Source: Alphaproteobacteria bacterium (lineage in GTDB: Bacteria; Pseudomonadota; Alphaproteobacteria; Bin95). From it: 64,000 nucleotides of DNA. The stretch is taken from the NCBI GenBank assembly GCA_965205265.1, contig CBDBGH010000003.1:352001-416000 (forward strand). Reading direction: 5' to 3'. Position 1 is the first letter of the stretch, and each line of letters starts with the position of its first letter. The notes under the pieces were generated by a model. That model did not search any database and was not told the DNA's origin. It was given only the letters and a program-made list of their open reading frames with translations. A program made the translations under genes and the position numbers. Below, in pieces: positions 10,063-34,311 of this stretch.

Positions 10063-10276
10063 TATGACAATGGGTGACAGCGATGGGTGATTTCTGTGGA
10101 AATTCGGGAACTGGATTGAAGGATTCGATGATGGGCAGGCATTGGAGCTTCTTTTGCCGGGCATGACGTCGGGGATATCGGGATAGTGCTACGGAGATGC
10201 ATATAGGATAGTGGACCTATGAGTGCGCTGTGACAGGCCCATTGTATCGCTATCGACGGGAAAGGAACAGAGGCCA

Positions 10277-10597
10277 ATGAGGGGACCCGAGGGAAAACGC
10301 AGGCAGCGCGCCGTGTTGCTGACCGACCGTGAGAGGGACCGCATCGGTGCGCGCGCGAAGACGGCCGGCATGCCGTTCTCGCGTTATATCGCGCACCGGC
10401 TGGCAGGCCCGGCGGAGACGCCGGCGGCGGCGGCGGACCCCTCGCCGGAACTGCTGCGCCGGGTGCTGCGGGAGGTCATGATCCTGTCGCGGATCGAACA
10501 GCAGCGCATGGCGGGCCGGGAGGGCGAGGAAGAGACCTGGGAACGGGTGGCCGCCGAGGTCGATGCGCAGCTGGCGGCGGAGGAGGGCCTGGGATGA
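10277..10597 (+). CDS. MobC/MobA-like ribbon-helix-helix protein 1
   Basis: RAVLLTDRERDRIGARAKTAGMPFSRYI. Confidence 0.7.
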   Translation: MRGPEGKRRQRAVLLTDRERDRIGARAKTAGMPFSRYIAHRLAGPAETPAAAADPSPELLRRVLREVMILSRIEQQRMAGREGEEETWERVAAEVDAQLAAEEGLG

Positions 10598-10914
10598 GGA
10601 AGGCGCGGCAGCGGACGCTCTACTGCACGCCGTTGGAGAAGGCGACGATCCAGGCGGCGGCGGCGAAGCTGGGGGACCCGGTCTCGCGGTTCGTGATTGC
10701 CAGCGGCCTGCGCAATGCTGCGGCCCTTGGCGAGGGTCCGACCGGTGAGGCTCTTGTCTTGAGCGATGAGGAGCAACGGGGGCTTGTCGAGGGCGTTGAG
10801 CGTCTGACGGCGCTGGACGCGGCGCTGCGGGAGCCGTTGTCGGGCATCGAGGCGACGGCACTGGAGGCGCTCGCCTTCGTCTATCGTGCGCTCACGGCGG
10901 AGGCGATGCGGTGA
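10594..10914 (+). CDS. MobC-like RHH protein 2
   Basis: RTLYCTPLEKATIQAAAAKLGDPVSRFVI; ATGA overlap. Confidence 0.7.
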   Translation: MRKARQRTLYCTPLEKATIQAAAAKLGDPVSRFVIASGLRNAAALGEGPTGEALVLSDEEQRGLVEGVERLTALDAALREPLSGIEATALEALAFVYRALTAEAMR

Positions 10915-11405
10915 GGCGGGCGGCCACGGGGAGAGGCGCGACCGGCCGCAAGCGCCCCGGTCCGAAGGACAGGATTTCGGGGGTCCATCTGTCGATTTCC
11001 TGCACGGACGCGGAGTGGGCCCGTATCCGCCGGCTTGCCGATGCAGCGGGCAAGACGATCTCGCGCTACCTGATCGACTGCGCCATGGAGGCGGCGGCTC
11101 TCATCGACAAGGGCGTTGACTGGCCGCCGCCGGGCGCGGAGGGCCTTGTGCTGGACGCGGCGCAGCAGCAGGCCCTGCTCGACGGCGTGAGGGACCTGGC
11201 GGGGCGTATGCCGGGCAGCGGACAGATTGCGGAGCAGGCGGCGATGGCGGCGTTCCTCTTCGATGCGGTGCTGCTGGACATGGCCGGGCGGGGTCTCAGG
11301 CAGGAGCGGGACGCGCTTCTGGCTGCCCATTTCGGCAGTGCGCGCGGGGCGGAGATAGCGGCCGGAGCGGACCGCAGAGCGGCGGAACGCGGTCTTGCAT
11401 CCTGA
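10911..11405 (+). CDS. MobC-like RHH protein 3
   Basis: LSISCTDAEWARIRRLADAAGKTISRYLI; GTGA overlap. Confidence 0.7.
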   Translation: MRRAATGRGATGRKRPGPKDRISGVHLSISCTDAEWARIRRLADAAGKTISRYLIDCAMEAAALIDKGVDWPPPGAEGLVLDAAQQQALLDGVRDLAGRMPGSGQIAEQAAMAAFLFDAVLLDMAGRGLRQERDALLAAHFGSARGAEIAAGADRRAAERGLAS

Positions 11406-14474: not shown

Positions 14475-17400
14475 CTACAGCTTCATCCCGCCGCCCTCGC
14501 TGCGGTCGAGGGTCTGCGTCCTGCGCTGCTGCCGCTTGTCCGGCTGCGGCGCCTGGTACTCCGCCTGCCGGCAGAGTCTGGCGGTCACTTCAAGCGCTTT
14601 ACGGGTGAGAGACGACCTGTACAGATGCGGGACCATAGCGGCGTCCCGCTCCACGGCCTCCCATTCGGCGAGGAACCGGTCGGCTTTCCTGCGCCAGGCC
14701 GGGAACCCGCTGCGCTCGTGGACGGGCGTATCGGGCGGCCGCCAATACACTCCGCCCCGCAGGCGCAGGGCTTCCCTGGAGATTTCGCCGGCTTGCTCGC
14801 TGAGCGTCTTCAGGCGCTGCATGAGCTTGTCCTGCTCATCGAGCTGCGAGGCGATCGCGGCGAGCTGCTCGCCCCTCTTCGAGTCGGGATCGAAGAACCC
14901 GCGCGCCTCGTCGAGCGACTTGCGGAACGCCTCGTATCCGACCTGGTAGGGCATCTCCGAAGGCTTTCTGCCGGCCCGCTCGAAGAGTTCCTTGTATTCG
15001 GCGGCGACGGCCTTGCGGACCCGCTCGCGCTCCTCGCGCTCGTTCCGCCCGGCAAGGCCGGAGAGGCGCGCCGCCGACGCCTTGTCCAGACCGGGGCGCT
15101 GCGCCATCGTATCCAGGCGGGCGGTGAGATCGCCATACCCCTCGGCGCGGGAGGGCTGGACGCCGGCGGCCAGCGCGGCAGCGACATGGGCGTTCCAGTC
15201 CCGGAGAAGCCGGGCTGCGGCGTTGCCGGCCCCGATGGCGGACCCGAGCGTGCGGGCGCTTTCCCCGACCGAGGCGCGGAGCCCGGGGAGGCGCGCGAAG
15301 CGGACTGCGGCGCGCGGGTGGTCGGGAAGGCCCCTACCCCGGTCCAGGACCTTCCGGGCGTCGGCGCGCCAGGCCTTCCACTCCGGGAGCTCGGCGACGG
15401 CGCGCCCCTTGCGCGCCGCCTCATCGACCATGACGGAGCGCCGGTTCGCGATCCCGTCCGCCTCGCGCCGCCAGCCCTCCACGAGGTCGCGGGCCTGCAT
15501 CTCGCGCCCGTGCTCCCCGACGAGGTCGCGGATGTCCCGCGGCAGCGCCGCGGGAGGGTCGTCCCGCGCGGCGAGCGCCCGGAGCGGCGCCATGGCCTCC
15601 TCCGTTCCCTCCGCGTCGAACGGGGAAATGCCTTCGTCCTTTGCCTGCCTGGCATGCGTCCGCCACGTCTCCAGCGCATCGGCCAGCAACATGTCGGCCT
15701 CCGCGGCCGCCACCACGCGCTCCACCAGCTTGCGGTCGGCGGGGTCGCGGTCGAGGTGGACGCCGAACCTCCTGCTTTCGAGCAGCGCCTTGCCTGCCCG
15801 CATCAGCGCGCCGGCCTCTTCCCGTGCGTCCTTCCAGCCGGCAAGGTCGGTGACCGGCACGCCGGAAGATTCGGCCTCGGCGAGCAGGCCCGCGCGGCGC
15901 CCGTCCATCTTCCTGTATGACGGCAGCACGTTCCGGACCGCTTGGCCTGCCAGGACCAGCGCCTGATGCTCCTCCAGCAGGGCCGTCATGCACGCCGCCG
16001 TCGCGGCCGGCAGACCCTGTCGGTCCGCAATCTCCTCAAGCCGGGCGACAAGGGCTCCATATCCCTCGGCATGGAAGGGATGGATACCGGCTTCAGCGGC
16101 GGTCTTGTCATGCGCCCGCCAGTCCTCCAGCAGGGCCGCGCATTCATCGTCGAGCGCGACGGCCGCTTCCAGTGCTCCGGCCTCGCGCTCGATGCCGGAC
16201 CGGGTTCCGCCGGCGCGGGCGACATGGGGGCGGTACGCCTCGCCGTCCAGCAGCCGGCGCCCGGCCTTGGCTCTCCGTTCCGCCGCATCGCGCCATTCCC
16301 GCCAGCCGTCCATATCGGTGAGCGGCAGACCTGCGGCCTCTGCCTCCCCACCGAGCGTCCCGCGCGCCGTCTCGCTCCGGCCGCTCTCCTGGAGCCACGC
16401 CTCGACCTCCGCGCGGCGCGCCGCCTCCGTCTGCTGCTCTTCGAAGATGCGCGCGACCGCAGCCGGCGGCGGGCAGGGCAGGTTCCGGCGCGCGGCAAGC
16501 CTGCCGAGCCGTGCGACGACCTCCCCGTGCCCCTCCATGTCGAGCGGCAACACGCCCGCTTCCTCGGCCCGCGCCTCATGCTTGCGCCAGGCCGAGAGCT
16601 GCGGCCAGAGCTCCTCCCTGTCCATGATCCCGACCGCCGGGTCCTCGCCGACCGCCTCCAGCGCCGAGACCCGCTCGCCCGTCGCCGCCTCCAGCGCCGC
16701 CATCAGGTCCTCGCGGTTGTCGGTCAGCACAACCACACGGTCCCGCGCGCGCGTCAGCTCCACGTAGAACGTCGCCTGGTCGGTCAGCGCCCCATGGCCC
16801 GAGTCCAGCACCGCGACGACATTGTCGCGCGTGATCCCCTGCGCCCCGTGCACGGTCGAGCTCCAGGCATGGTCGAGATGGCGCAGCTGCATGTCCTTGC
16901 GCGAGAGCGCAAACGCGCGCCCGTCCTCGCCCCGGAACGACACCTTGCGCGGGCCGATCTCCACCACCTCCGCCCGGTCGCCGTTGGCGAGGCCGTGGGC
17001 CGGGTCGTTGCGGGTCCAGCGGATCCGGTCCCCGGCGCGTATCTCGATCGTCCGCGTCTCATAGACCTCGATCTGGTAGCGCACCCGCCCGTCCGGGCGG
17101 ATCGCAAGCCGGCGCCCGTCGGCATGCTCCAGCCGCACGCGCCCCTCCTCTATGCCCGTGACCGCGAAGCACTCGCCGGCGCGCGCCTTGCCGCCCCATA
17201 TGTCGTGCAGGAACACGACCTCGTCGCCTTCGACATAGTTGCGGATGTCGCCCTTCTGCGCCCGCGTCATGCCCCGGCTCACCAGGCGCTCGATGGTGAG
17301 CGTCCGCCCGTGCAGCACGCCCTCCTCGGCCAGCGCCTCGCGGACGGTGTCGTTGATGCGCTCGCGCAGCTCGTGCGTCGGGGCGAGCAGCGCGGTCTCT

Positions 17401-19334
17401 GCCCGCGCCGCCTCGTCGAGCCCGAGCCAGATGCGCGCCGCCGTCTCCCCGAGCGCGCCGGCGTCCACCTCGTGCACGTCGTCCCCGAGCCGCTCGACAG
17501 CCAGCGCCGGCTCCCGGTCCAGCGCCGCATCGACCGCCGCCTTCAGTTCCGGGGTCCGCTGGCGCAGGATCTCGTCCATGACCGCAATCGGCATGCCCGC
17601 GCGCTGCAGCAGCCGGAACGGGCCGCCCGCATCCACGGCGCGGAGCTGCGCCGTGTCGCCGACCAGCGCCAGCCGCCCGACCCCGAGCGTCTCCGCGATC
17701 CGCATCAGCGCCTGCATCTGCACCGTGCCGGTCATCGACGCCTCGTCCAGCACCAGCACCGTGCCGGCGTAACGCCGCCTGAGCCTTGCCAGTTCCTCCG
17801 CGCCGATGAGCCCGTCGGCGGCGTCGCCGAAGCGGGCGAGGAACCAGGCGAGCGTGCGCGCCGGCATGCCGGCCTCCGCGCCCATGGCGCGCGCCGCGAC
17901 CGCCGTCGGCGCGAGACCGATGACCCGCTTTGCGCCCGCCAGCCGCACGACCTCGCGCAGCATCGCCGTCTTGCCCGTGCCGGCATAGCCCTGCACCCCC
18001 AGGATGCGGTCATGCGAGCAGAGGATGTGCCGCACCGCGCGCTTCTGGCCCTCCGTCAGCCCGCTTGCCGCCAGGCCCCTGTCGACGGCCGCCTCCGCGA
18101 CGGTCGGCCCGCCCTCGCCGAGACCCGCACGCATCCGCGCCACCACGTCCTTCTCGCCCCTGAGGATGCGGTCGGTGGCGAAGGACGGGTCGCGCCGCTT
18201 CTTCGCCGCCACCAGGTGGCCGTCGCGCACCAGCCCGCGCACCGCCTCCCTCAGCGCCGGCAAGCGGAAGCTGCCGGGCGAGTGGCCGAGCGCCAGCGTC
18301 TCCAGCGACCGGGCCGTGAACACCGAGCTGCGCTCCTCCAGCTGCTCCATGCCGCGCCACACCACCTCCTGTGCCGAAAGCGCCGCGCCGTCCACCGCCG
18401 TCTGATGGATGCGCCGCCGCCGGCGCCGCATGGCCTGCGCCTTCCTGCCCGGCATCCCCATCTCGCGGGCGCGCGCCGCCCACATCGCCGTCATCGCCGC
18501 GCGGTCCGGCTCCGCCTTGCGCGTTCGCGTCGCCAGCGCCGCCTGCTGGCGCCTTGAGGCCGTGTTCCTCACCCCGTGCCTCTCCACCCACTTCAGGATA
18601 TCCCGCCGGCGGGTCGAGAAGCTCCGCAGCACCGGGCGCCCGTAGCCGCGGATCTCGAAGCTCGGCACATGCCCCGCCCGGGAAGGCTCGAGCTCGTAGC
18701 CCAGCGCCGCCACACGCGCCGCCAGCTCGTTGCGGTAGAACGCCCCGATCAGCATCTCGTTCGACGCGAGCGCGCCGAGGTCCGGGCTGCGCCACTCGCC
18801 GTCGCCCGTCAGCGTCATGTTGGCGATCACCGCATGGCTGTGCAGCTGCGGGTCGAGATTGCGGTTCGCCAGATGCCGGAACACCGCCGCCACCATGCCC
18901 GGCGCGCGCACCCGCCGGTGCCGCCGCCGCTCCCGGTCCCACTGCCGGGTGAGCAGCAGCTCCTCCTCGATCCACTCCAGCGTCGCCCGCACCGCCTCGT
19001 CATGCGCGCGCACCACCCGCTTGTCGCCGTCCACAAGCGCGGCCAGCGATACCGACTTCGGCGCCGAGAAGGTCACGTCGCGGCCCGCCTCGTGCACCAG
19101 CACGCCATCCTGGACGGTCCCGAGCCGGACCCCCGCCTTCGGCGCCTCGCCCTTCATGATCTCCGCGAAGCGCTTCGGCGAGACGTGGCGCCCGAGCCCC
19201 AGCGCCGCCGCGCCCTTCCCGTGCCAGCGGCTCGCCTTGCGGTGCTCCGGGTCGCCGGCGGCATAGTAGCCGTCCTCGACGAAATAGCTCACCACCGAAC
19301 GCGCCGAGTTGATCTTCGTTACATTGGCGACCAT
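14475..19334 (-). CDS. trwC: MOBF relaxase-helicase (TrwC/TraI-like) with long C-terminal repeat extension
   Basis: YFVEDGYY, DVTFSAPKSVS, HLANRNLDPQLHSH, GYAGTGKT, LDEASM, TVHGAQG. Confidence 0.93.
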   Translation of the reverse strand: MVANVTKINSARSVVSYFVEDGYYAAGDPEHRKASRWHGKGAAALGLGRHVSPKRFAEIMKGEAPKAGVRLGTVQDGVLVHEAGRDVTFSAPKSVSLAALVDGDKRVVRAHDEAVRATLEWIEEELLLTRQWDRERRRHRRVRAPGMVAAVFRHLANRNLDPQLHSHAVIANMTLTGDGEWRSPDLGALASNEMLIGAFYRNELAARVAALGYELEPSRAGHVPSFEIRGYGRPVLRSFSTRRRDILKWVERHGVRNTASRRQQAALATRTRKAEPDRAAMTAMWAARAREMGMPGRKAQAMRRRRRRIHQTAVDGAALSAQEVVWRGMEQLEERSSVFTARSLETLALGHSPGSFRLPALREAVRGLVRDGHLVAAKKRRDPSFATDRILRGEKDVVARMRAGLGEGGPTVAEAAVDRGLAASGLTEGQKRAVRHILCSHDRILGVQGYAGTGKTAMLREVVRLAGAKRVIGLAPTAVAARAMGAEAGMPARTLAWFLARFGDAADGLIGAEELARLRRRYAGTVLVLDEASMTGTVQMQALMRIAETLGVGRLALVGDTAQLRAVDAGGPFRLLQRAGMPIAVMDEILRQRTPELKAAVDAALDREPALAVERLGDDVHEVDAGALGETAARIWLGLDEAARAETALLAPTHELRERINDTVREALAEEGVLHGRTLTIERLVSRGMTRAQKGDIRNYVEGDEVVFLHDIWGGKARAGECFAVTGIEEGRVRLEHADGRRLAIRPDGRVRYQIEVYETRTIEIRAGDRIRWTRNDPAHGLANGDRAEVVEIGPRKVSFRGEDGRAFALSRKDMQLRHLDHAWSSTVHGAQGITRDNVVAVLDSGHGALTDQATFYVELTRARDRVVVLTDNREDLMAALEAATGERVSALEAVGEDPAVGIMDREELWPQLSAWRKHEARAEEAGVLPLDMEGHGEVVARLGRLAARRNLPCPPPAAVARIFEEQQTEAARRAEVEAWLQESGRSETARGTLGGEAEAAGLPLTDMDGWREWRDAAERRAKAGRRLLDGEAYRPHVARAGGTRSGIEREAGALEAAVALDDECAALLEDWRAHDKTAAEAGIHPFHAEGYGALVARLEEIADRQGLPAATAACMTALLEEHQALVLAGQAVRNVLPSYRKMDGRRAGLLAEAESSGVPVTDLAGWKDAREEAGALMRAGKALLESRRFGVHLDRDPADRKLVERVVAAAEADMLLADALETWRTHARQAKDEGISPFDAEGTEEAMAPLRALAARDDPPAALPRDIRDLVGEHGREMQARDLVEGWRREADGIANRRSVMVDEAARKGRAVAELPEWKAWRADARKVLDRGRGLPDHPRAAVRFARLPGLRASVGESARTLGSAIGAGNAAARLLRDWNAHVAAALAAGVQPSRAEGYGDLTARLDTMAQRPGLDKASAARLSGLAGRNEREERERVRKAVAAEYKELFERAGRKPSEMPYQVGYEAFRKSLDEARGFFDPDSKRGEQLAAIASQLDEQDKLMQRLKTLSEQAGEISREALRLRGGVYWRPPDTPVHERSGFPAWRRKADRFLAEWEAVERDAAMVPHLYRSSLTRKALEVTARLCRQAEYQAPQPDKRQQRRTQTLDRSEGGGMKL

Positions 19335-19433
19335 CGCCGTCCCCGCCGCCTGCCCGGCGCCGTGCATGATGCGGTGAATTGCATGGATGGCGGCGTCGGC
19401 GCCGCCGCCGCAACCGGGGTCATGGACGAAGCC

Positions 19434-21768: not shown

Positions 21769-22053
21769 ATGAACAAGTCCGAATTGGCTGAGCGTCTTGC
21801 CGGGCGCACAGGAAGTAGCAAGGCCGCCGCGAAGGACGCGGTCGACGGTGTGTTCGACGTGATCGCCGAGGCCCTGGCAGATGGCGAAGACGTGCGGATT
21901 ATCGGATTCGGCACCTTCGGAACCAGGGAGCGCCCGGCGCGTATCGCCCGTAACCCGCGCACGGGAGAAAATGTGCCGGTGGCGGCTTCGACCGTGCCGG
22001 TCTTCAAACCCGGCAGATCCCTCAGGAATACCGTCGCCGGCGAAGCCTCATGA
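21769..22053 (+). CDS. hup: HU family DNA-binding protein
   Basis: MNKSELA...GFGTF...RNPRTGE...PVFKPG. Confidence 0.93.
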   Translation: MNKSELAERLAGRTGSSKAAAKDAVDGVFDVIAEALADGEDVRIIGFGTFGTRERPARIARNPRTGENVPVAASTVPVFKPGRSLRNTVAGEAS

Positions 22054-22301: not shown

Positions 22302-22573
22302 TCAGCTGGACAGTGTGAGCCGTTGAACTTCGTTGTTGAAGGTTTCTGTAACCGCCGTACCTTCTGCTTCGGGCAGCCACTTTACCATATTCGGAACAAT
22401 TTTTTCCACATACGGATATCGCGTTCCGAAAAAGGCATAGTCTCTGAGCTACTAAGTTTACGGAGTAGAATATTCAATCGTGATCTGATGGCGTCGATGT
22501 CTGGTGTAGAGGAACGCTTTGGCGGTGTCATTTTGCCTTCGCCGAAAAGACTCTGTTGACCATCAACCGTCAT
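22302..22573 (-). pseudogene. Frameshifted small hypothetical gene downstream of type ISP enzyme
   Basis: ...MPFSERDIRMWKKLF, then continues in another frame PNMVKWLPEAEG...EVQRL to TGA at 22302. Confidence 0.45.
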
Positions 22574-23570
22574 CTATCTCATCTCCTGCGTCCCGTGGCC
22601 AAAGCACATTGCGCGTGAGCGGTGTATCGAGTGCCCGTGCCAGGATGGTATCGGCCTGGTCGAACAGGTCAATTAAACAGGCGATTCGGGCACAAACGTT
22701 TTGAAACTCTTGGAAGAGTTCGAGATTGACTGGCAGGCCCTTGCGGCCTTCAAGCCAACGCTGAAGTACAGAGTATCCGCTGACCTCGAAATCCCAAAGA
22801 TTCTCGGGCAATCCTGTAACAGTGCCGGTTCCATCTGCAGACAGGTTGAGTGTCGTTCCTTGAGGTTCCTCAACGTGCAACAGGGCTCCGACGCTCGGAG
22901 TGGTCGCGAGTTGGACGAATGACAGGTCATCCAATGCTGGAGGTGTCTGTGCAAACGTCTCGATCTCGCGAATCCGCGCACCGAGCACGGCCGCCTGGTC
23001 GAAAACCGCATGGTCAGCAGGCAAGGGAATATGCGGAAATTCGTCCTCAAGGTCTTCGGCAAATCGCAGCGTGTAGCTTGATGCTGAGCCAAGGCAGAGT
23101 ATTGCATCGAAGACGTTTTCGGCTATGACGGCGGTACCATAGACTGCCGTCAAGCTGTCGACGAGATCGACCGAGAGGTTCGACGCCGCGCGAGCTGGAC
23201 GGCGGTCGTAAAGGGGAAAAGCATAACCGCCGTAGCTGCCCCGGAAACTGTGGTAGTCAGGCAGCAGAGCGTGGCACCAGACAGCAGGCCCGGCTCCGAT
23301 GCCGCGGGGAAGCGTGTACAGCGCGGCGTTGGTTTCACCCCATACTTGCTGGAGTCGGGGGCGAAGACGGTCTCCGTACTGGTGTTGCAAGTATATGAAT
23401 CGGCGATCAAGCGGACGATAAGCTGCTTCCCGAATTGCTTCCGGATCGAATGGAACGGTGCGCGCGGATCTGGCGGTCCTGTAGCCGGTGTCATGGAACA
23501 TTTCCCGTGCAGCTTCGTCTGTTGCATCGAGGAACGCTTCAATCCGACGGCGTAGGCGTTCGGGGCTTGT
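22563..23570 (-). pseudogene. Type ISP restriction-modification enzyme, C-terminal specificity domain only
   Basis: YRPLD, FPLY, Y..RFAEDLEDEFPHIPL, WDFEVSGYSVLQRWLEGRK; 5' part missing. Confidence 0.8.
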
Positions 23571-23597
23571 GTGTGCAGACGGCCCGGAGGCCCGCAG

Positions 23598-24581
23598 ATG
23601 TTTCTCGAACCCCCGTTCAACGCTTCGGAGGCGCAGGATCGAGACCGGGACCCCATGCTCGCGGAGCAGTTGGCACAGTTCGTCCGGGCGGCAAGCGGCG
23701 CGTTCTCAGGCAATACCGAGCGGGCGCTCAGGTCCGATCTCGCCATCTACGCCGAGTGGTGTGCGGAGCGAGGACAGCGGGCGCTGCCGGCAAAGCCCGA
23801 GACCGTCGCCGCTTTCGTCGACGCCAAGGCGGAACTGCGCGCGCCCGCCACGGTGCGCCGCTACGTCACCAGCCTCGTCATCGCCCACCGGGCGCTCGGG
23901 CTGGAGAAAACGATCAAGAGCCCGCCGGTTCAGCTCGCGCTCAAGCGCATGCACCGGAAGAAGGGACGGCGCCAGGATCAGGCGACGGGACTGACCTGGC
24001 CGCTGCGCCAGCGCCTGCTGGAGGCTGCGGACGGCCGGCTGATCGACGACCGCAACCGCGCGCTGCTCGCCGTCGCCTACGACGCGATGCTGCGTCGGGC
24101 CGAACTGACCTCATTGGAAGTCACTGACCTGCTTGAGGAAGTGCAGGGCGACGGCAGCCTGCTGGTGCGCCGCTCCAAGACCGACAGCGAGGGCCGGGGC
24201 GAGATCGTCTGGGTCGGCCGGGACACCGTCCGGCTGGTGCGGGTATGGCTCGACCGAGCCGGGATCGCGGAAGGCAAGCTGTTCCGCTCGGTTGGCAAGG
24301 GAGGACGGATCGGCGAGCGGCTCCATCCCTGCCAGGTGCCGCGCATCTTCAAGACCATGGCGCGCGAGGCTGGCCTGCCGGACGCGGTGGCCTCAGGCCT
24401 CTCCGGGCACAGCGCCCGGGTCGGCGCGGCCCAGGACATGGTCGCCGCCGGCATCGAGCTGCCGGCGATCCTCCACGCCGGGCGCTGGAAGTCGACTGCG
24501 ATGGTGAACCGCTACAGCGAGCGGCTGCTGGCGCGGCGCAGCGGTGCGGCGCAACTGGCCCGGATGCAGCAGCGGGGCTGA
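23598..24581 (+). CDS. Cre-like tyrosine recombinase
   Basis: GGAGG RBS; AYDAMLRRAEL, RRSKTD, SGHSARVGAAQDM, GRWKSTAMVNRY match the Cre catalytic pattern. Confidence 0.9.
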   Translation: MFLEPPFNASEAQDRDRDPMLAEQLAQFVRAASGAFSGNTERALRSDLAIYAEWCAERGQRALPAKPETVAAFVDAKAELRAPATVRRYVTSLVIAHRALGLEKTIKSPPVQLALKRMHRKKGRRQDQATGLTWPLRQRLLEAADGRLIDDRNRALLAVAYDAMLRRAELTSLEVTDLLEEVQGDGSLLVRRSKTDSEGRGEIVWVGRDTVRLVRVWLDRAGIAEGKLFRSVGKGGRIGERLHPCQVPRIFKTMAREAGLPDAVASGLSGHSARVGAAQDMVAAGIELPAILHAGRWKSTAMVNRYSERLLARRSGAAQLARMQQRG

Positions 24582-24887
24582 GCGGCACCGGGGGCATGCG
24601 AACGAAGCCGTTGGGCTATGATGGCGCGACCTTCGACGCGGGATTCTGCAGCACAAATACGGCCGGAACCCGGGCCGCGCGCCTCATGGGCGCAAATTCA
24701 GAAAATGCTATCGAGCGCAATAATTGGCACCGTCAGCGGGCCGGGCTTCCTGCCGGTATGGCCTGCACGGGGCCGGCAGATCCTGGAAAAATCGCTATAA
24801 TTCAACGAGATGTCAGCAGTTGGAGGTGGGATTCCGTGGTCTGTCGCGGATGCGGTGGGCTGCCGGTGCGAGTACGATATTGACAAT

Positions 24888-24921
24888 ATTGCGCGCGATA
24901 GCGACAGCTATCGCGCGTAAT
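24888..24921. other. Candidate lox-like recombination site (13-8-13)
   Basis: ATTGCGCGCGATA-GCGACAGC-TATCGCGCGTAAT, 12/13 inverted arms. Confidence 0.65.
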
Positions 24922-25532
24922 CCGGAGCCGGAGCGAGCGGCTCCGCGCCGCCTGGCAAGCCGCCCAAGAGGTTGATATTTCGGGCATTTCGGACGCCGCA
25001 GGGAGCTTCCGGTTCCCGGAGGTCCGTTCCGCCGCCTGATATCCCCGATATCGTGAACCTGAGACGATCATTGCCCGGTTTCCCGCGTCTCGACAGAGGC
25101 GTGTCCCCGCAGGATGCGCTACGGCATCGGGCGGGACCGCGGTCGCCGGCATGCAGCTGCGGCCCCGGACCCTGCGTTCTCCCTTCTCCCCATTCTCCCT
25201 GTTAGCGGGCCAGACCCTGCAGGGATAATGCCCATCGCCAGAACATTCATGCGCGGGCGGCATGCCCTGTAGCCAGCACGGATCGGTAAGTGCCGCAGCC
25301 GGACGAGGATGATCGCATCAGGGTGACACGGCCCGAGCGGCACCGGCGCATTCATGCCCCGGTGGCATGGATTCGGACGCGGAGGGCATTTTCTTTCCTG
25401 CTGTCAACGGATTAATCGACCTCCCTCAGCATGCCGGGACGGCGACACCGCGAGCCGTAGCGCTTCGCGGGCGGAATCCGTGCCTCCCACCGGACGCGAT
25501 GCGCGCGCGGCGTGCATCGAGGGAAAGACGCC

Positions 25533-27833
25533 ATGCACGTCGTCGTCGTCGAATCGCCGGCCAAGGCGAAGACCGTCCGGGCCTGTCTCGGCCCGGGCCA
25601 CACGGTCATCGCCACCCGGGGCCATGTGAAGGACCTGCCGGCAAGGGACGGCTCGGTCGATCCGGGGCGCGGTTTCGCCCTCGTCTACGCCACCGGACGC
25701 AGCGCGGCGCGCACGCTGCGCTCGATCGCGGACGCGCTCAAGGGGGCGGACGCGCTGGTGCTCGCCACCGACCCCGACCGCGAGGGCGAGGCCATCGCCT
25801 GGCAGGTGCTGTCGTGGCTCGAAGAGAAGGACGCGCTCAAGGGCAAACCCGTGCGCCGGGTGGTGTTCCACGAGGTGACGAAGGAAGCGGTACGCGCCGC
25901 GATGGCTCGTCCGCGCGCGATCGACATGGACCTTGTGCGCGCCCAGCAGGCGCGGCGCGCTCTCGACTACCTGGTGGGCTTCAACCTCTCGCCGGTGCTG
26001 TGGCGCAAGGTCCGCGGCGGGCGCTCGGCCGGGCGCGTGCAGTCGGTGGCGCTCAGGCTCGTCTGCGAGCGCGAGGCGGAGATCGAGGCGTTCCTGCCGG
26101 AGGAGTACTGGACCGTCGAGGCCGGCGTCACGGCGGAGCGCGGCGGCAGCTTCACCGCCCGCCTCGCCGGGCTCGACGGCGAGGCGCTCGGCCGCCATGC
26201 GCTCGGGACAGGCAAGAGCGCCGAAGAGGCCGCGCGGCGCATCCGCGAGGGCGTCTTCCGGGTGGCGAAGCTGGAGCGCGACACCGTCCGGCGCGACCCG
26301 GTCCCGCCCTTCATCACCTCGACGCTTCAGCAGGAGGCCTCCCGCCGGCTCGGCTTCGGGGTGCGCAAGACCATGCGGATCGCCCAGGCGCTCTACGAAG
26401 GCGTCGATCTCGACGGCGCGGCGGCGGGCCTCATCACCTACATGCGCACCGACAGCGTGGCCCTGTCCGGGAGCGCCGCCGCCGCCGCGCGACAGATCGT
26501 GCACGACAGCTTCGGCCCGGACTACCTTCCCGCCAGGCCGCGCGTCTTCCGCTCGCGCGCGCGCAACGCCCAGGAGGCGCATGAGGCGATCCGCCCTACC
26601 GACCTTGCGCGCACACCGGATACAGTCGAAGGTCGCCTCGGCACCGACGAGGCCGCGCTCTACGGGCTGATCTGGCAACGCGCCGTCGCGAGCCAGATGG
26701 CCGCTGCGAAGCTCGACCGGGTGCGGGTGGAACTCGCCGCCGACGGGGGCGGGGTCGTGCTGACCGCTTCAGGCTCGCAGACCCTGTTCGATGGCTTTCT
26801 CAGAGTCTACCGCGAGGACGATGATGAAGATGACGCCGAGCTGGAGCCCGAGCGGACGTTGCCGGCCATGGCCGAGGGCGAGCGCGTCTTCGTGACGGAG
26901 GTCCACACGGGGCAGCGCTTCACCCGCGCCCCGCCGCGCTACACCGAGGCCGACCTCGTGGGCCGGCTGGAAGAGCTCGGCATCGGCCGGCCCTCGACCT
27001 ATGCCTCCATCGTCGGCGTGCTGCGCGAGCGCGGCTATGCGGTGCTCTACAGGCGCCGCTTCGTGCCGACCGAGCGCGGCCGCGTGGTGACCGCCTTCCT
27101 GGAGGAGTATTTCGAAAACTGGGTGGCCTACGGCTTCACCACCGGCATGGAGGCGGACCTCGACCGCGTGGCCGCGGGCGGGACGGCGTGGACCGGCGTG
27201 CTGAAGGCGTTCTGGGGGCCCTTCGAGGCGGCGCTGGAGAAGGCGGGCGGGCTCAGGCGCGAAGATGTCCGCGACGCCTTGGAAAGCGCCTTGGAGCGCT
27301 ATGCCTTCGCGTCAGCGGGACAGCCGGTGGAACGGGTCTGCCCCGCTTGCCCCGACGGGTGGCTCATGCTCAGGCTCGGCCGTTACGGGCCTTTCGTCAG
27401 CTGCGCGAACTTCCCCGAATGCCGCTACAGCCGTCCGCTCTCCGGAGATCCCGCGGAGGCCGGGGAGAGCGGCAAACATGTCGTCCTCGGCACCGATGGC
27501 GAAACCGGGCTCCCGCTTACCCTGCGCCGCGGCCGCTTCGGGCGCTACATCCAGCTTGGCGAGGACGACGGGGACGTGCGCGCCCCGCGCAGAACCGTCC
27601 CGGCGTCGATGGAGGCCGACGAGATCATCCCGGAACTCGTCCGCGCGCTGCTCGCCCTGCCGCGCACGGTGGGAGTGCACCCCCAGACGGGCAAGACCAT
27701 CCTCGCCGGCATCGGACGCTACGGCGCCTGGCTCAAGCACGGCGCCACCTACGTCCCGCTGCCCGACGACGAGGACGTGCTCGCCGTCGGTCTCAACCGC
27801 GCGGTCGTGCTGGTGGATGCCAGGCTCCCCTGA
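25533..27833 (+). CDS. topA: DNA topoisomerase I (island-borne)
   Basis: VVESPAKAK, LATDPDREGE, SAGRVQS, GLITYMRTD, QEAHEAIRPT, C4 Zn finger. Confidence 0.92.
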   Translation: MHVVVVESPAKAKTVRACLGPGHTVIATRGHVKDLPARDGSVDPGRGFALVYATGRSAARTLRSIADALKGADALVLATDPDREGEAIAWQVLSWLEEKDALKGKPVRRVVFHEVTKEAVRAAMARPRAIDMDLVRAQQARRALDYLVGFNLSPVLWRKVRGGRSAGRVQSVALRLVCEREAEIEAFLPEEYWTVEAGVTAERGGSFTARLAGLDGEALGRHALGTGKSAEEAARRIREGVFRVAKLERDTVRRDPVPPFITSTLQQEASRRLGFGVRKTMRIAQALYEGVDLDGAAAGLITYMRTDSVALSGSAAAAARQIVHDSFGPDYLPARPRVFRSRARNAQEAHEAIRPTDLARTPDTVEGRLGTDEAALYGLIWQRAVASQMAAAKLDRVRVELAADGGGVVLTASGSQTLFDGFLRVYREDDDEDDAELEPERTLPAMAEGERVFVTEVHTGQRFTRAPPRYTEADLVGRLEELGIGRPSTYASIVGVLRERGYAVLYRRRFVPTERGRVVTAFLEEYFENWVAYGFTTGMEADLDRVAAGGTAWTGVLKAFWGPFEAALEKAGGLRREDVRDALESALERYAFASAGQPVERVCPACPDGWLMLRLGRYGPFVSCANFPECRYSRPLSGDPAEAGESGKHVVLGTDGETGLPLTLRRGRFGRYIQLGEDDGDVRAPRRTVPASMEADEIIPELVRALLALPRTVGVHPQTGKTILAGIGRYGAWLKHGATYVPLPDDEDVLAVGLNRAVVLVDARLP

Positions 27834-27971
27834 TCGGCAAGGGGTCTTGTGGAAGCGCGCGGGACCGCACGCGACACGACGGCCCATCCGGTAAGCACAC
27901 TCGTCAACCGTCCTACCAATGACGACCCGCGCTGCGTCGAAGCAATCTCGCTCGCTTGACCTGGACCGCCA

Positions 27972-28409
27972 TACAACTGGGACACCTATATCGGCGAGAC
28001 CACCCTTGCTGATTTCAAAGCGCAAACCGGCATATCGGTCCGAATGGACCTCTATGCCGACAATGACGAGCTGTTCGCGAGGCTGAGGGCCGGCAATCCC
28101 GGCTACGACGTGATCGTGCCGACCGGCGATTTCGTCGAGCGCATGATCGCCGCCGGCATGCTGATGCCGCTCGACCATGCGGCGATTCCCAACATGGCGA
28201 ATATCGAGCCGGCCTTCCGGGACGCCGCCTTCGACCCCGGCCGGCGCCATTCCATCCCCTATATGTGGGGCACGGTGGGCATCGGCTACCGCAAGTCCCC
28301 CTGCGACGGCGCGCCCGACAGCTGGCACCGGCTCTGCGACACGGGCCGCCATAGCGGACACCGAACGCTGCCGAGCAAGGCGGGCATCCCCGCGGGACTT
28401 GAATGTTGA
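27972..28409 (+). pseudogene. PotD/PotF polyamine-binding protein internal fragment
   Basis: YNWDTYI...GYDVIVP...SIPYMWGTVGIGY...PDSW; no signal peptide, truncated. Confidence 0.8.
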
Positions 28410-28840: not shown

Positions 28841-29737
28841 CTACTGCCGCTTCGCGCCGAAGGCGCCGACAATGTTGGACTGCTCGAAGATGCCTGCCGC
28901 CTCGGCATGGCCGGGACCGTAGAAGCCGCCCTGGATTCGCGTACCCGACTGTCCGGATGAAAAGGTTCCGTCCGGAGCCACCGCGAGGTTGGTGAAGAAT
29001 AGCGTCTCGACGCCATGCGTCCTCCCGCGGTCGATGTTCCTGATTCCGCTGAATCCGGCATCGAGTCCTCCGGTGGCCATGTCGTAGTTCAGGGCCGCCG
29101 TCCCGACCAGTCGGTCACCCCGACCCTCCCCGACAGTAGGCGTCCCCACCATGATGCCAAGCCATGAGGCGGACCCGGTCAGCGGGCGATCGGTGAGATC
29201 TCCCAGGGCGGTCGCGCGCAGGGTTTCGCTCTCAACTTCCTCGCTGACAGCGCGCACGCTGTTGAGCGAGAACGAGCCATGCTCCATCCAGGCGCCGAGC
29301 GAGACCGCGTCCAGGCCCATCTGCTGCCTGCTTTGCGACATCAGGGTAACGCCATGCGCGGAGCCGATGGGTTCCATTTCGCCAAGTTCAACCACGGCGT
29401 CATCGAGAGTAGTCGTGTCGGTCTCGCCGGTTGTGGGGTCTAGCAGTTCGCACACCGCTCCGGAGCACTCCGAAAGCTGCCGGATTGTACGGGTCTTGTC
29501 CGAGACCACGAGTTCCGAGTGCGCCGTGGTGACAACCAGGGAATCGGCGCGTGAAACTATATCCTGCAGACGCGCCTGCTGCGCCGCCCCGGTCTCAATC
29601 GGCGCGGACAGGCCGGCCAAGTCCCTGATCTCGCCGGGAGTAGAAGCCAGCCGGGAATTCGAGCCGCCGCTCCCGATGCAGGCCGAAAGCGACAGAACCG
29701 CGGCCGTCGCCAGGCCGCAGGCAGAAAGGAACCTCAT
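28841..29737 (-). CDS. Surface lipoprotein, TbpB-like beta-barrel
   Basis: Lipobox LSAC-IGSGG; GGFYGPGHAEAAGIF...VGAFGAKR. Confidence 0.85.
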   Translation of the reverse strand: MRFLSACGLATAAVLSLSACIGSGGSNSRLASTPGEIRDLAGLSAPIETGAAQQARLQDIVSRADSLVVTTAHSELVVSDKTRTIRQLSECSGAVCELLDPTTGETDTTTLDDAVVELGEMEPIGSAHGVTLMSQSRQQMGLDAVSLGAWMEHGSFSLNSVRAVSEEVESETLRATALGDLTDRPLTGSASWLGIMVGTPTVGEGRGDRLVGTAALNYDMATGGLDAGFSGIRNIDRGRTHGVETLFFTNLAVAPDGTFSSGQSGTRIQGGFYGPGHAEAAGIFEQSNIVGAFGAKRQ

Positions 29738-30329
29738 GCCGGTTTCTCCCTCACATCTGGAAATCCACGGTCGGCTCTGGCGACCGTATTGATGACCGCG
29801 CCGGTATCCGCACCCTTGCGCTGTCGGCCTTACACGGTTCGGGAGTGCGGCGCCCGCAGGATTTTCTCGTGGAACTTTCATGGGGCCGACGAATAAGGTA
29901 TTCGGCCTCTCCGCGTTTTTCGAATTTCATCGATCCGCCGTAGCTAAGGCGGACGCCCCGTCGAGCATCCCGGTACAGATCGAAGCGATCCCGGACATCC
30001 ACAGCATCCCGGACGCTACCGTAGTCCAAAACTATTGGAAAAAACGAGAGGCGGTCAATCTTTCGGCACACAAGTCCCCCGACAGGAACCGGAAACGACA
30101 CACCGCTTGCCGACGTACCTCCCCATTCCGGCGCCTGTCCGATCCTGCCGACAGACCGCGACGGTCTTCAACAAACCGGTAAGAAATATTTCACGGTCTC
30201 GGCCGGGACATTTCCTGCGCCGACAGCCTCTGTCAGCCCAGAAACGAGCGACCGTCCCCATCGGGTGATCCTGCTAATGGCGCAACCGAATCCCTGCCTC
30301 GACAGCCTGCGTGTCGAAGCTTGCAGCAA

Positions 30330-30893: not shown

Positions 30894-33668
30894 CTACCAC
30901 CGAGCGGTCAAGTCGAAGCCTATCCGGTGCTCGGGCGGACCGTCGTCATTCGCGCTCTCACGCCGCAGCCCTTCCACCCGGAATTCGAAGGCCTGCGGGC
31001 CGCTCCACTGCGACGTCAGCCACCAGCCGAGCATGTAGTCGCGGCCCGTGTTCGACACTCCCACCGCGACCTCCGGCGTCCCCGTCAGGTGGCCGCCGAA
31101 CGCCGGCACGCCGTAGCCCAGCCGCGCCTCGAACCGCCGTCGGCCCGACTCGTCGTCGTTGGCTGCCAGACCCGCCAGGTCGTCGCGCGCGAGCAGCGCA
31201 TCCACGCCGTTCGCATCGAAGGGCCCCAGGGTCTGGTTCAACGACAGCTTCGGCCCGCGCTCCGAGGACAATTGCGGGTCCCAGGTCAGGCCGCCCGAGA
31301 CCCCACGCTCGCTGAAGCCCGACTCCTCGTGGGTCAGCAGACCGCGCGCCTTCACCTCGGCCGAGAGCCCGCGCTTCGGGTCGGACCACGCCACGCCGCC
31401 GCCGACCTCGGTGCCGAACCCGGTCTCGGCATCGCCGCCGTCCACCCGCAGGCCCAGATCCGCGCTCGGGGTCAGGGTGACGCCGTCGCCGACGTCGAAC
31501 GCCCGGCTGCCGTCCAGCACGAGCCGGAGCCGCGTCACCTCGCTCTGGCTCGCCGCCATGCCCGGCGCGGCCTCGCTCCCGGTGCCGACCCACATCGCGT
31601 CGGACCTGACATCGAGCGCGAGACTGTCCTTGTCGTCGAGCAGTCGGCCGGTAACGCCGAGCGCGCCCATGCGCAGGCTGACGTCGGTTTCCATGGCATC
31701 CCGTCCGTCGGGCTTCAGCGCGAGATTGCCCTCGCCTATGCCGGCGAGACCCCAGACCGACATCCGTCTGCTCACATCCAGCTTCGCGTAGGGGTGGACC
31801 CCCGTCAGCGTGCTCTCGACTTTGCCCCTGCCCTTAGAGCCGCCGTAAGTGCCCTCGCCCCGGCTGTGCGACAGCATGAGACCCGCCAGCACCCGGTGCC
31901 ACTCGGCGTCGGCCCCCAGGAATCCGGTGGCGGCGGTTCCGTCGATGGCGGCGCCATCGGCCTCGCCCTCGAATGCGGTGCTCGCGAACCGGCTCCACGC
32001 AACCATGCCCGGGCCACCGGTCTCGCTCTGGTCGGCGGAAAGATGGAACGAGGTGCCGAGCAGGAACTCCCGGGCAGTCATGGTTTGTGTCTGCGCCTCG
32101 CGGTCGTGCTCCCGCCAGTTTCGTTTGTTGTCGGCACCCAGCGCCGGCTCGAGCCATCCGCCGGCAGCAGCGGACTGCCCGCCGAGCGTCAGAGCCGGCT
32201 TCCGACCGGCTGTTCCGTCGAGCCGTCCGATCACCGCTTCCACGGCCTGTCCTGCTATCGTCCGTCCGAACCGGGCTTGCCATGCCTCGAGAACCGGGCG
32301 TCGGTCGAAGCCGATATCCGTCCGGGTCCTCCCTTCCCCCGACTCCGACCAGGCCCCGTCGCCCGCGGCATTGGACGCACGCACTTGCACCTGGTACGAC
32401 GTACCCGGCCGAAGACCCCCGATAGAGGTGGAAAGGCCGCTTACGTCCTGCGGGCCGTCGGTCCAGCCGCCGCTCGACCCCGTCCGGTAGCGCAGATCGT
32501 AGCTTGCGATTGCCGGGCCCGTATTCGACGGGGCGTCCCAACTCACGTCCAGGCCCGGCTTCGTGTTCGCCCTTTCCGTCACCCTCGGCGCCGCCGGCTT
32601 GCCCGGCACCTCCGCCACGTCCGTCACCCGCACCGTCACCGTCACGTCCGTGTTCGACAGCCCGTCGCTCGCCCGCACCGTCAGCGTGAACGCCGACGCC
32701 GGGGTCCCTAAGCCCTCGTAGTTCTCCCCGCTCCCCACATAGGTGAGAACGCCGCTCAGGGTGCCAAGCTCGAACTTGCTCTCCGTGTTCCCCGCCTGAA
32801 TGCTGTAGCTCACTACGTCGCCGGGGTCCGCATCCGTCGCCTTCACCGTTCCCAGAGACAGCGCCGTCACGTTGCCGGCCGCATTCTCCGCAAGATCGAA
32901 CGTATAGCTTGCTGCGTCGAAGGACGGCGCACTGTTCGCCGTCGTCGTCCCTTCCCCCGGATCCGACCAGGCCCCGTCGCCCGCGGCATTGGTCGCACGC
33001 ACTTGCACCTGGTACGACGTACCCGGCCGAAGACCCCCGATAGAGGTGGAAAGGCCGCTTACGTCCTGCGGGCCGCCGGTCCAGCCGCCGCTCGACCCCG
33101 TCCGGTAGCGCAGATCGTAGCTTGCGATTGCCGGGCCCGCATTCGACGGGGCCTCCCAACTCACGTCCAGGCCCGACTTCGTGTTCGCCCTTTCCGTCAC
33201 CCTCGGCGCCGCCGGCTTGCCCGGCACAGTCTGCGTGTTCGCCCTTTCCGTCACCTTCGGCGCTGCCGGCTTGTCCGGCATAGTCTGCCTCGTGCCAAGG
33301 TCAGGCGTCCGTGCCGGTTCGGAGCCGGACGACGACGGCGACCCTGTTGGTGGGGAATCCTGCCCATTGGTGGGACGGCACGGTTTGAATATGACTGGAT
33401 ACGTTCTCCAGAGAGGCTGCCAATCGGCATCGAACACGGTGCCCGCCGGGCACCCGTAGTTCTGGTCGTCGGCAGTGTCCGTTGCAGAAGCCGTCCCGCA
33501 CAGCAGCGCCGTCGAGACAAGGGCACTTGCGAGAATCGGGAAGAGCGCCCTGGCGACGGTCCATGCAGCCCCGGACAGAATTCCTGGAAAAGCTCGGAAA
33601 GAGAAGCGGAAACCCGGCCCGTCATATAGCCGTCGGCGTGAACCGCAAAGGACTGGCAGTCGATGCAT
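30894..33668 (-). CDS. Autotransporter-like adhesin: 2 fibronectin type III domains, cadherin domain, C-terminal beta-barrel (start uncertain)
   Basis: LDVSWxAP...GLRPGTSYQVQVRA twice; ATDAD/TLTVRASDG cadherin motifs; ends FDLTARW. Confidence 0.85.
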   Translation of the reverse strand: MHRLPVLCGSRRRLYDGPGFRFSFRAFPGILSGAAWTVARALFPILASALVSTALLCGTASATDTADDQNYGCPAGTVFDADWQPLWRTYPVIFKPCRPTNGQDSPPTGSPSSSGSEPARTPDLGTRQTMPDKPAAPKVTERANTQTVPGKPAAPRVTERANTKSGLDVSWEAPSNAGPAIASYDLRYRTGSSGGWTGGPQDVSGLSTSIGGLRPGTSYQVQVRATNAAGDGAWSDPGEGTTTANSAPSFDAASYTFDLAENAAGNVTALSLGTVKATDADPGDVVSYSIQAGNTESKFELGTLSGVLTYVGSGENYEGLGTPASAFTLTVRASDGLSNTDVTVTVRVTDVAEVPGKPAAPRVTERANTKPGLDVSWDAPSNTGPAIASYDLRYRTGSSGGWTDGPQDVSGLSTSIGGLRPGTSYQVQVRASNAAGDGAWSESGEGRTRTDIGFDRRPVLEAWQARFGRTIAGQAVEAVIGRLDGTAGRKPALTLGGQSAAAGGWLEPALGADNKRNWREHDREAQTQTMTAREFLLGTSFHLSADQSETGGPGMVAWSRFASTAFEGEADGAAIDGTAATGFLGADAEWHRVLAGLMLSHSRGEGTYGGSKGRGKVESTLTGVHPYAKLDVSRRMSVWGLAGIGEGNLALKPDGRDAMETDVSLRMGALGVTGRLLDDKDSLALDVRSDAMWVGTGSEAAPGMAASQSEVTRLRLVLDGSRAFDVGDGVTLTPSADLGLRVDGGDAETGFGTEVGGGVAWSDPKRGLSAEVKARGLLTHEESGFSERGVSGGLTWDPQLSSERGPKLSLNQTLGPFDANGVDALLARDDLAGLAANDDESGRRRFEARLGYGVPAFGGHLTGTPEVAVGVSNTGRDYMLGWWLTSQWSGPQAFEFRVEGLRRESANDDGPPEHRIGFDLTARW
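32331..33280. repeat. Near-identical ~280-bp FN3 duplication (offset 618 bp) plus partial third copy
   Basis: 32331-32609 ~ 32949-33227; partial copy 33235-33280. Confidence 0.9.
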
Positions 33669-33796
33669 AACAGGGATTCCAATCTTGTAACCGTTTGGCT
33701 TCTGTACTTTTCGCCGCAACCCGATGGCTCCGTTCGATCCCCAGGCGAATGCTTGCGCGACGATGACGCGGTTGTGCGAGTTGAGGTCAGGGTTTC

Positions 33797-33838
33797 CGGT
33801 CCAGGTTGGGATCGAACCTGCGATCTCAAGATTATGGG
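33797..33838 (-). other. Degenerate 3' half of a tRNA(CAT)-like sequence
   Basis: CCCATAA-TCTTG-AGATC-GCAGG-TTCGATC-CCAAC-CTGGACC has tRNA 3'-half spacing; T-stem mismatched. Confidence 0.35.
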
Positions 33839-34311
33839 GATCGAGGTCGATGCGGCATGCGGTGCCTCCAACACGACAATTGAGTGAATCGAGAGCGTTT
33901 TACGATCAACAATGAGGTGTTTGATTGCGGCATGGAAACCTCAAGGAACCAGCCAGCTCTGGGCAATAATCGGCGCATGGCGCTCAATTCTGGGCGCAAG
34001 CAAGCTAACGATGTCAACGTCACGGCCCGACGGCGCCCCCTAGCCCTCGTGCGCGGCTTCCGCCGCTCGCCCCTCTCCTCGAATCTGACCATGGGAGGCC
34101 GTGCGATGTCAATCCCGAATGTTGATTGAAGCGACGGAATTCAGCGGTTGCGGCCTCCTAAAGAATGGCGCTCCACCGTCGCCCCGGCCCCCCGAGCCGG
34201 GGCCTCGCGCCGCAAGGGATATTGCTCGCCGGGAGAGGTCCCGGATCGACGCTGACGCGCCGTCCGGGACGATGGAAAGGGCCTGGCGGTTCTTGCGCGT
34301 TGCCGCCGGTA

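Follow-up and report, generated by a model that had tools for sequence, protein, structure and literature searches.

A Cre-type recombinase with a lox-like site as the probable one-site relic of a proposed family of invertible cassettes

To our knowledge, the closest known design to the element described here is the Hin/hix H segment of Salmonella, in which an invertible segment contains the recombinase gene together with an outward promoter and, on flipping, switches an adjacent surface-protein gene. Hin belongs to the serine recombinases and depends on an enhancer and on Fis. The recombinases of two further invertible promoters, fimS and ipuS, are not of the Cre subfamily. The accessible text of PMC6083910 describes both as promoter inversion by tyrosine recombinases, with FimB/FimE acting on fimS and IpuA/IpuB acting on ipuS, which lies beside the autotransporter gene upaE. 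For Cre-type enzymes, the accessible part of PMC10250229 gives a search rule for target sites (a 13-15-bp palindrome with an 8-bp gap, less than 1 kb from a Cre-like gene) and reports about 500 predicted pairs, with 8 of the 17 tested pairs being active.

The window, that is, the whole stretch of 64,000 nucleotides that was analyzed, sits in a 5.46-Mb chromosome (68% G+C) of a three-contig genome, and contains a Cre-like gene followed by a lox-like site. We consider it probable that the two are a Cre-type pair, that they belong to a family of cassettes which flip a promoter toward either a surface-protein gene or a hairpin, and that the window copy is a locked relic of this family. The recombinase gene and its ribosome-binding site are located as follows:

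23586-23590, + strand: GGAGG ribosome-binding site, 7 nt before the ATG
23598-24581, + strand: intact gene for a Cre-family tyrosine recombinase (327 aa)

The ribosome-binding site was kept in all 19 of the 19 upstream alignments shown. The 327-aa protein matched Pfam Phage_integrase with an E value of 1.8e-15. Among the sequences of solved structures, its 17 best distinct matches were all Cre or Cre-derived (E values of 9.3e-26 to 8.3e-24), and the first match to a structure other than Cre, which was XerD, reached an E value of only 0.009. The alignment placed residues 27-316 of the query against residues 29-333 of the 343 residues of Cre, a span that takes in the DNA-binding domain at the N terminus as well as the catalytic domain. 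R166, K194, H271, R274, W297, and Y306 aligned with R173, K201, H289, R292, W315, and Y324 of Cre, the six catalytic residues as named in the accessible part of PMC10250229. An earlier sequence-only reading of this DNA had claimed Cre-type motifs in the protein, with Trp at the W315 position and the catalytic R, K, and Y. The structure-sequence alignment bore this out, with SGHSARVGAAQDM of the 327-aa protein standing opposite SGHSARVGAARDM of Cre and the residues in question being W297, R166/R274, K194, and Y306. At the level of sequence, the gene product is confirmed as a Cre-type tyrosine recombinase with all six catalytic residues present, and it is presumably capable of catalysis.

The proposed target site and a related single arm lie downstream of the gene:

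24888-24921, + strand: 34-bp lox-like site ATTGCGCGCGATA-GCGACAGC-TATCGCGCGTAAT, 306 nt after the recombinase stop codon
24888-24900 and 24909-24921, + strand: the two arms of the 34-bp site
24901-24908, + strand: the spacer of the 34-bp site
24709-24721, - strand: accessory single arm, read on the + strand as TATCGAGCGCAAT, with one mismatch to the site arm

A 34-bp site of 13-8-13 geometry had been claimed about 300 bp downstream of the gene, and it was found there with arms complementary at 12 of 13 positions, the sole mismatch being G:T. The 34-mer is present once in the 5.7-Mb genome, with up to three mismatches allowed. The 8-bp spacer had also been called asymmetric. This holds for the central GACA only, as the palindrome enters the spacer by two bases, which lengthens the arms to 15 nt and leaves 4 nt between them. 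Among 5,699,735 genome positions, 68 palindromes with 13/8/13 geometry and no more than one mismatch were counted, and the chance expectation for such a palindrome is about 0.03 per 2.3 kb. The first inventory of sites was correct for the downstream 34-bp site and overlooked the third copy of the arm at 24709-24721. Matches to the arm with at most one mismatch occurred 18 times in the genome, and three of them lie inside the same 213 bp. The accessory arm is a probable extra half-site for binding of the recombinase. The pair may be orthogonal to Cre, as had been suggested.

The homologue scan, in which one genome per species was used, returned 29 loci with 57-90% protein identity, several per genome, distributed over the Alpha- and Gammaproteobacteria and one Longimicrobiales genome. 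The same geometry and arm family was found beside the recombinase gene in 28 of these loci, the exception being L026. An upstream site was present in 24 of the 29 loci, 71 to 38 nt before the start codon, and a downstream site in 23, about 300-350 nt past the stop codon (in the Longimicrobiales locus L022, about 70 nt beyond the last position of the protein match). Sites on both sides of the gene were found in 19 loci. Among 27 cassettes examined, the window included, 25 carried the lone arm 117-148 nt past the stop codon, and its sequence varied together with the site arms of its own locus, for example as the TATCGCGAG, TATCAGGAG, and TATCGTG types. Such conservation may point to an additional binding site without a counterpart in Cre. 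A search for plasmid-borne relatives yielded 2844 records, all with less than 60% identity, and the three that were examined (L032-L034, 39-48% identity) showed no 13/6-8/13 palindrome with at most two mismatches within about 2 kb of the gene.

The sequence-only reading had asked whether the site recurs near homologous genes, and its recurrence at all but one of the related loci leaves the proposed pair standing. The recombinase/target pair is further upheld, as far as sequence can tell, by the covariation of site arms and accessory arm and by the matching spacers of paired sites. These observations support the assignment of the 34-bp palindrome as the putative cognate site of the recombinase.

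The two sites of each two-site locus are inverted relative to each other. Once one site was reverse-complemented, the central six bases of the spacer were identical in 18 of 18 paired loci, while reading both spacers in the same direction left 2-6 of the 6 positions different. When partners were shuffled, none of 10,000 shuffles reached the observed agreement, with six spacer types being present in the 18 loci. The Longimicrobiales locus, which belongs to another phylum and has 59% protein identity, has different arms and supplied a 19th pair with a seventh spacer type; both of its sites are palindromic without a mismatch, and all 8 spacer positions agree between them. In total, the spacers of paired sites matched in 19 of 19 loci with seven spacer types, and since these loci are related rather than independent, it is the roughly seven spacer types that carry the weight. 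In genome G001, which has eight full-length and two partial copies of the recombinase gene, all sites found with at most two mismatches belong to one of six pairs, whose members are separated by about 1364 bp and enclose a gene. Genome G003 has four copies of the gene.

Tyrosine recombinases require identical crossover regions, and inverted sites in cis permit inversion only. Because the paired sites are inverted and their spacers identical, the family has the look of a self-contained invertible unit, about 1.4 kb in length, with the recombinase encoded inside. The sequence-only reading overlooked this natural design with two inverted flanking sites, of which the window keeps only the downstream one. 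In the proposed mechanism, each 13-bp arm would be bound by one recombinase monomer, and strands would be exchanged within the central 6 bp of the spacer. Inversion of the approximately 1.4-kb cassette together with its recombinase would then be the only reaction possible in cis, and we infer that such inversion takes place in two-site members of the family.

What the cassette may switch is suggested by its two flanks. Nine of 22 loci have an open reading frame, 366 to more than 970 aa long, that points away from the cassette and starts at most 38 nt outside the upstream site, after a GGAAGGTGGAGG-like motif, and this short distance leaves no room for a promoter of its own. At the remaining loci, the open reading frame near the upstream site is short or starts about 166 nt away. 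The large cassette-adjacent proteins have cadherin-like, fn3, SWM-repeat, Calx-beta, or He_PIG domains. At L014, the neighbor is an unnamed protein, followed by a gene for a surface-lipoprotein assembly modifier. At the other end of the cassette, the window has the following features:

24880-24885, + strand: TTGACA box, candidate -35 element of an outward-facing promoter, 2 nt before the site
24697-24724, + strand: promoter-like TTCAGA-16-AATAAT, overlapping the accessory arm and pointing toward the site
24923-24945, + strand: GC-rich hairpin with an 8-bp stem and without a U run, directly outside the site

Of the 23 cassettes that have a downstream site, 22 have the TTGACA box at a distance of exactly 2 nt before it. 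The hexamer that follows it after 17 nt coincides with spacer positions 3-8 (GACAGC at 24903-24908 in the window). On the downstream side, its last base is C in 18 of 23 cassettes; after a flip, on the upstream side, it would be T in 14 of 18. As a -10 element, this hexamer is weak (GACAGC or GACAGT), and the consensus promoter scan did not call the TTGACA promoter. The same scan did call the TTCAGA-16-AATAAT block, at 9 of 12 positions, and the block is conserved in the alignment of related cassettes; it may function as a promoter as well. A hairpin-prone GC-rich stretch also follows the downstream site in related loci. In a separate observation, the segment 24831-24881 inside the cassette has a GGAGG and, after it, a frame of 15 codons that opens with GTG and is closed by the TGA within TTGACA. 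The alignment shows an equally long and equally placed frame at L008, and the feature could encode a leader peptide or be due to chance.

The TTGACA box and the spacer hexamer together resemble an outward promoter that would be split across the crossover point. One fixed flank, at the 5′ end of the recombinase gene, would offer a surface-protein gene with its ribosome-binding site and a start codon at most 38 nt from the site, while the other fixed flank would open with the GC hairpin. Depending on the orientation after a flip, the promoter would face the surface-protein gene (ON) or the hairpin (OFF). We infer this ON/OFF logic from the arrangement of the elements in the sequence.

A more elaborate reading, which we regard as possible and distinctly tentative, sees the cassette as a portable phase switch whose split promoter is tuned by flipping. 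The -35 box and five bases of the -10 hexamer would move with the cassette, and the last -10 base would stay in the fixed flank. With T at the gene side and C at the hairpin side, the exchange could also tune the strength of the promoter. The seven spacer types, several of which occur within one genome, may at the same time partly insulate up to eight copies per cell from one another. If this portable-switch reading were true, the enzyme and site of the window would belong to a ready-made set of lox variants.

Evidence on the orientation of the cassette was sought in its flanks, one of which is shared between the window and an upstream-only locus:

24922-25110, + strand: fixed flank common to L021, where it adjoins the 5′ end of the recombinase gene

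In L021, this flank is reverse-complemented and lies at the same distance from the site, beside the 5′ end of the recombinase gene and not beside the TTGACA end. The same opposite-end arrangement was found in L030 over about 60 nt. Flanks at opposite ends, in the window on the one hand and in L021 and L030 on the other, are what inversion would be expected to leave; since the window and L021 are both one-site copies, this falls short of proof of an active switch. In the main group, which comprises at least 12 loci, a single assembled orientation was found, with the recombinase pointing away from the large gene. The flipped junction was not found in 301 genomes of the class, among which the window genome is the only member of its genus, and a low-power search of 17 genomes of the genus returned only known cassettes. 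Metagenome contigs likewise yielded no flipped junctions; they also yielded none of the generic TTGACA-plus-site ends that served as the positive control, the family being absent there. Comparison of L012 with the Logan contigs of four runs gave pieces of about 80-500 bases of this multi-copy family, none of which spanned the site and both flanks, and contigs of this size listed no strand-changing joints at L012. Two of these runs, with pieces at least 99% like these genomes, are labelled as sponge metagenomes.

The window copy departs from the two-site design at its upstream end, where two features meet:

23561-23597, + strand: conserved 5′ leader of the cassette, at which homology to all related cassettes begins
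22563-23501, - strand: 5′-truncated gene for a Type ISP restriction enzyme (PF18135, E value 1.1e-40, profile positions 67-315 of 342)

Homology of the window to related cassettes spans 23561 to about 24928. The 34 bp preceding 23561 are unrelated sequence, and the upstream site is absent where its inner arm should end. No remnant of this site was recognized in the window, an ungapped comparison matching 2 of 14 positions, and none of 30 relatives shares the upstream junction of the window. The truncated Type ISP gene adjoins the cassette at the place of the missing site, and the fragment comprises the C-terminal specificity domain alone, with the nuclease, motor, and methylase parts missing. 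Since the breakpoint lies at the inner edge of the missing arm and not in the spacer, the loss is not explained by the recombinase itself. A partner site was not found elsewhere in the genome either, so the window has one site in place of the two inverted sites of an invertible segment. Without a second site in the genome, the window copy cannot invert.

Other one-site loci are known within the family. L018, L021, L023, and L024 are without a downstream site, while L025, L027, L029, and L031 kept the downstream site and have a 5′-truncated recombinase gene. These four upstream-only and four downstream-only loci look like products of decay. In the window, decay would have removed the upstream site and the target gene, with the truncated Type ISP gene in their place, and would have spared the recombinase gene, so that the copy would be parked with its promoter end toward the hairpin flank. 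The wider surroundings of the locus are as follows:

10223-10597 and 10800-11405: two NikA-like proteins, remnants of a conjugative element
14475-19433, - strand: TrwC relaxase-helicase (1652 aa)
21775-22053: HU, conjugative-element surroundings
25512-27833: type IA topoisomerase, conjugative-element surroundings
27960-28409: fragment of a solute-binding protein gene, probably a pseudogene
28841-29881: gene for a TbpB-like surface lipoprotein
30894-33899, - strand: fn3/cadherin protein (1001 aa), about 6 kb from the cassette

The window copy is probably a locked one-site relic inside a decayed conjugative element, judging from the missing site and these neighbors. The 1001-aa fn3/cadherin protein showed 24-43% identity, in tblastn segments, to the cassette-adjacent large proteins of nine other loci. 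Its gene has TTGACA-like boxes of its own upstream, and no lox-like site was found in its upstream region (33900-34300). Homology to the upstream flanks of related cassettes was not detected anywhere in the genome of the window.

Three further features of the surroundings were recorded. At 25159-25269, 240 nt past the site and ahead of the topoisomerase gene, there is a conserved non-coding element of about 110 nt, with ACATTCATGC as an invariant stretch. It recurs 430-530 nt past the downstream site in L003, L004, L005, L007, L009, L013, L025, and L029, and in L006 it lies beyond an inserted transposase gene and precedes a relaxase gene. No Rfam family was assigned to this element, a scan of 23300-25700 giving one chance-level miRNA match. 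Ends of a Mutator-family IS were found in the same genome outside the window (C3:427245-427426, 2322168-2322336, and 3503440-3503608), and these are 94-97% identical to the copy beside the L006 cassette in another genome of the genus. Within the window, the segment 53001-55000 has a G+C content of 0.52-0.58, compared with about 0.68 elsewhere, and a strong G-over-C skew of 0.26.

The conjugative surroundings invite another explanation, namely that the single site and the recombinase serve a once-mobile conjugative element in multimer resolution or cointegration and are not a dead switch. Cre/loxP is itself the resolution system of the P1 plasmid, the recombinase gene of the window is intact, and one site suffices for intermolecular recombination. 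The locus stands amid TrwC, NikA-like, HU, and topoisomerase genes, and fragments of TrwC-like relaxases or topoisomerases were also seen near the cassettes of L006, L007, L040, and L025. Nevertheless, we think this explanation unlikely. The homology between the window and the two-site cassettes runs from leader to site and takes in accessory arm, TTGACA box, and flank hairpin; it ends exactly where the upstream site is expected, so that the loss of one site is a simpler assumption than a one-site design of separate origin. Moreover, the element sits in a chromosome of 5.46 Mb beside truncated genes, and the upstream-only and downstream-only relatives, the latter with truncated recombinase genes, have the appearance of decay as well.

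It is more doubtful still that the cassette is a transposon-like mobile element, with the 34-bp ends as its terminal inverted repeats and the recombinase as its transposase. Several copies per genome, as in G001 and G003, the spread over Alpha- and Gammaproteobacteria and a Longimicrobiales genome, and cassette ends that are inverted repeats of each other would all agree with such an element. However, the flanks are conserved too, over 230-700 bp downstream and 50-100 bp upstream (up to 1343 bp in paralogues), and conserved sequence outside both sites means that the repeated unit exceeds the cassette. Neither an empty target site nor a target duplication was seen, and each end by itself has both arms and the 8-bp spacer of a full lox-like site, the kind of substrate used by Cre-type enzymes in conservative recombination. 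If a Cre-type enzyme integrated a circle, the resulting repeats would be direct, whereas those of the cassette are inverted.

That the palindrome is only an RNA or DNA hairpin (a terminator or stabilizer) unrelated to the recombinase is very improbable: its RNA forms a stem of 15 bp closed by a 4-nt loop, with another hairpin of 8 bp behind it (-46.8 kcal/mol, z -5.1, with 0 of 200 shuffles folding as well), and the G:T mismatch of the arms would pair in RNA, but it lies 306 nt past the stop codon, has no U run of an intrinsic terminator and was not called by the terminator scan, 24 loci have the same site on the upstream side of the gene too, and a role as a hairpin alone is insufficient to explain why the spacer bases, which are free in the loop, are identical between paired sites in 19 of 19 loci and why the lone third arm, which is unable to form a hairpin, is kept in 25 of 27 cassettes.

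The preferred reading of a Cre-type pair, with an invertible family and a locked copy in the window, has consequences for both tool building and biology. For tool building, the occurrence of the site at nearly all homologues and the covariation of arms, accessory arm, and paired spacers go beyond proximity, and on these grounds the target assignment appears better supported than a prediction from proximity only. The seven natural spacer variants, together with several arm variants, are candidates for orthogonality. For biology, the cassettes point to a so far undescribed design of phase variation, in which a Cre-type enzyme would lie inside the segment that it inverts, repeated up to eight times per genome beside giant adhesin-like genes. 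In the literature on tyrosine-recombinase invertible promoters, as far as its text was accessible, no Cre-type enzyme inside its own lox-flanked invertible cassette was found. The window would illustrate how such a switch decays, the partner site being lost and the recombinase gene kept.

Compared with Cre/loxP of phage P1 and with other Cre-type pairs (Dre, Vika, Nigri, Panto, and the YR1-YR12 of PMC10250229), the recombinase of the window has in common the similarity to Cre over the full length and the R-K-H-R-W-Y set. The target has in common the 34-bp length, the 13-bp inverted arms, the 8-bp spacer, and a distance of less than 1 kb from the gene. Unlike those pairs, the window site has GC-rich arms, whose cores are absent from the sites in the one supplement of PMC10250229 that was accessible. 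The present family further differs in having two inverted sites around the gene and a lone accessory arm, and in being a chromosomal, multi-copy element instead of a phage or plasmid resolution system.

The fimS and ipuS switches, as far as the accessible text of PMC6083910 describes them, resemble the present family in being promoter-bearing invertible elements that turn an adhesin or autotransporter ON or OFF, a function that is proposed for the family here. They differ from it by a short invertible element, by recombinase genes located outside this element, and by recombination at short repeats and not at lox-like 13-8-13 sites. With Hin/hix, the present cassette has in common the internal recombinase, the proposed outward promoter, and the neighboring surface-protein gene, but its recombinase is a Cre-type tyrosine enzyme and its sites are simple and lox-like. 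The cassette family appears, from its sequence, to be a natural system in which a Cre-type recombinase is combined with an invertible promoter switch.
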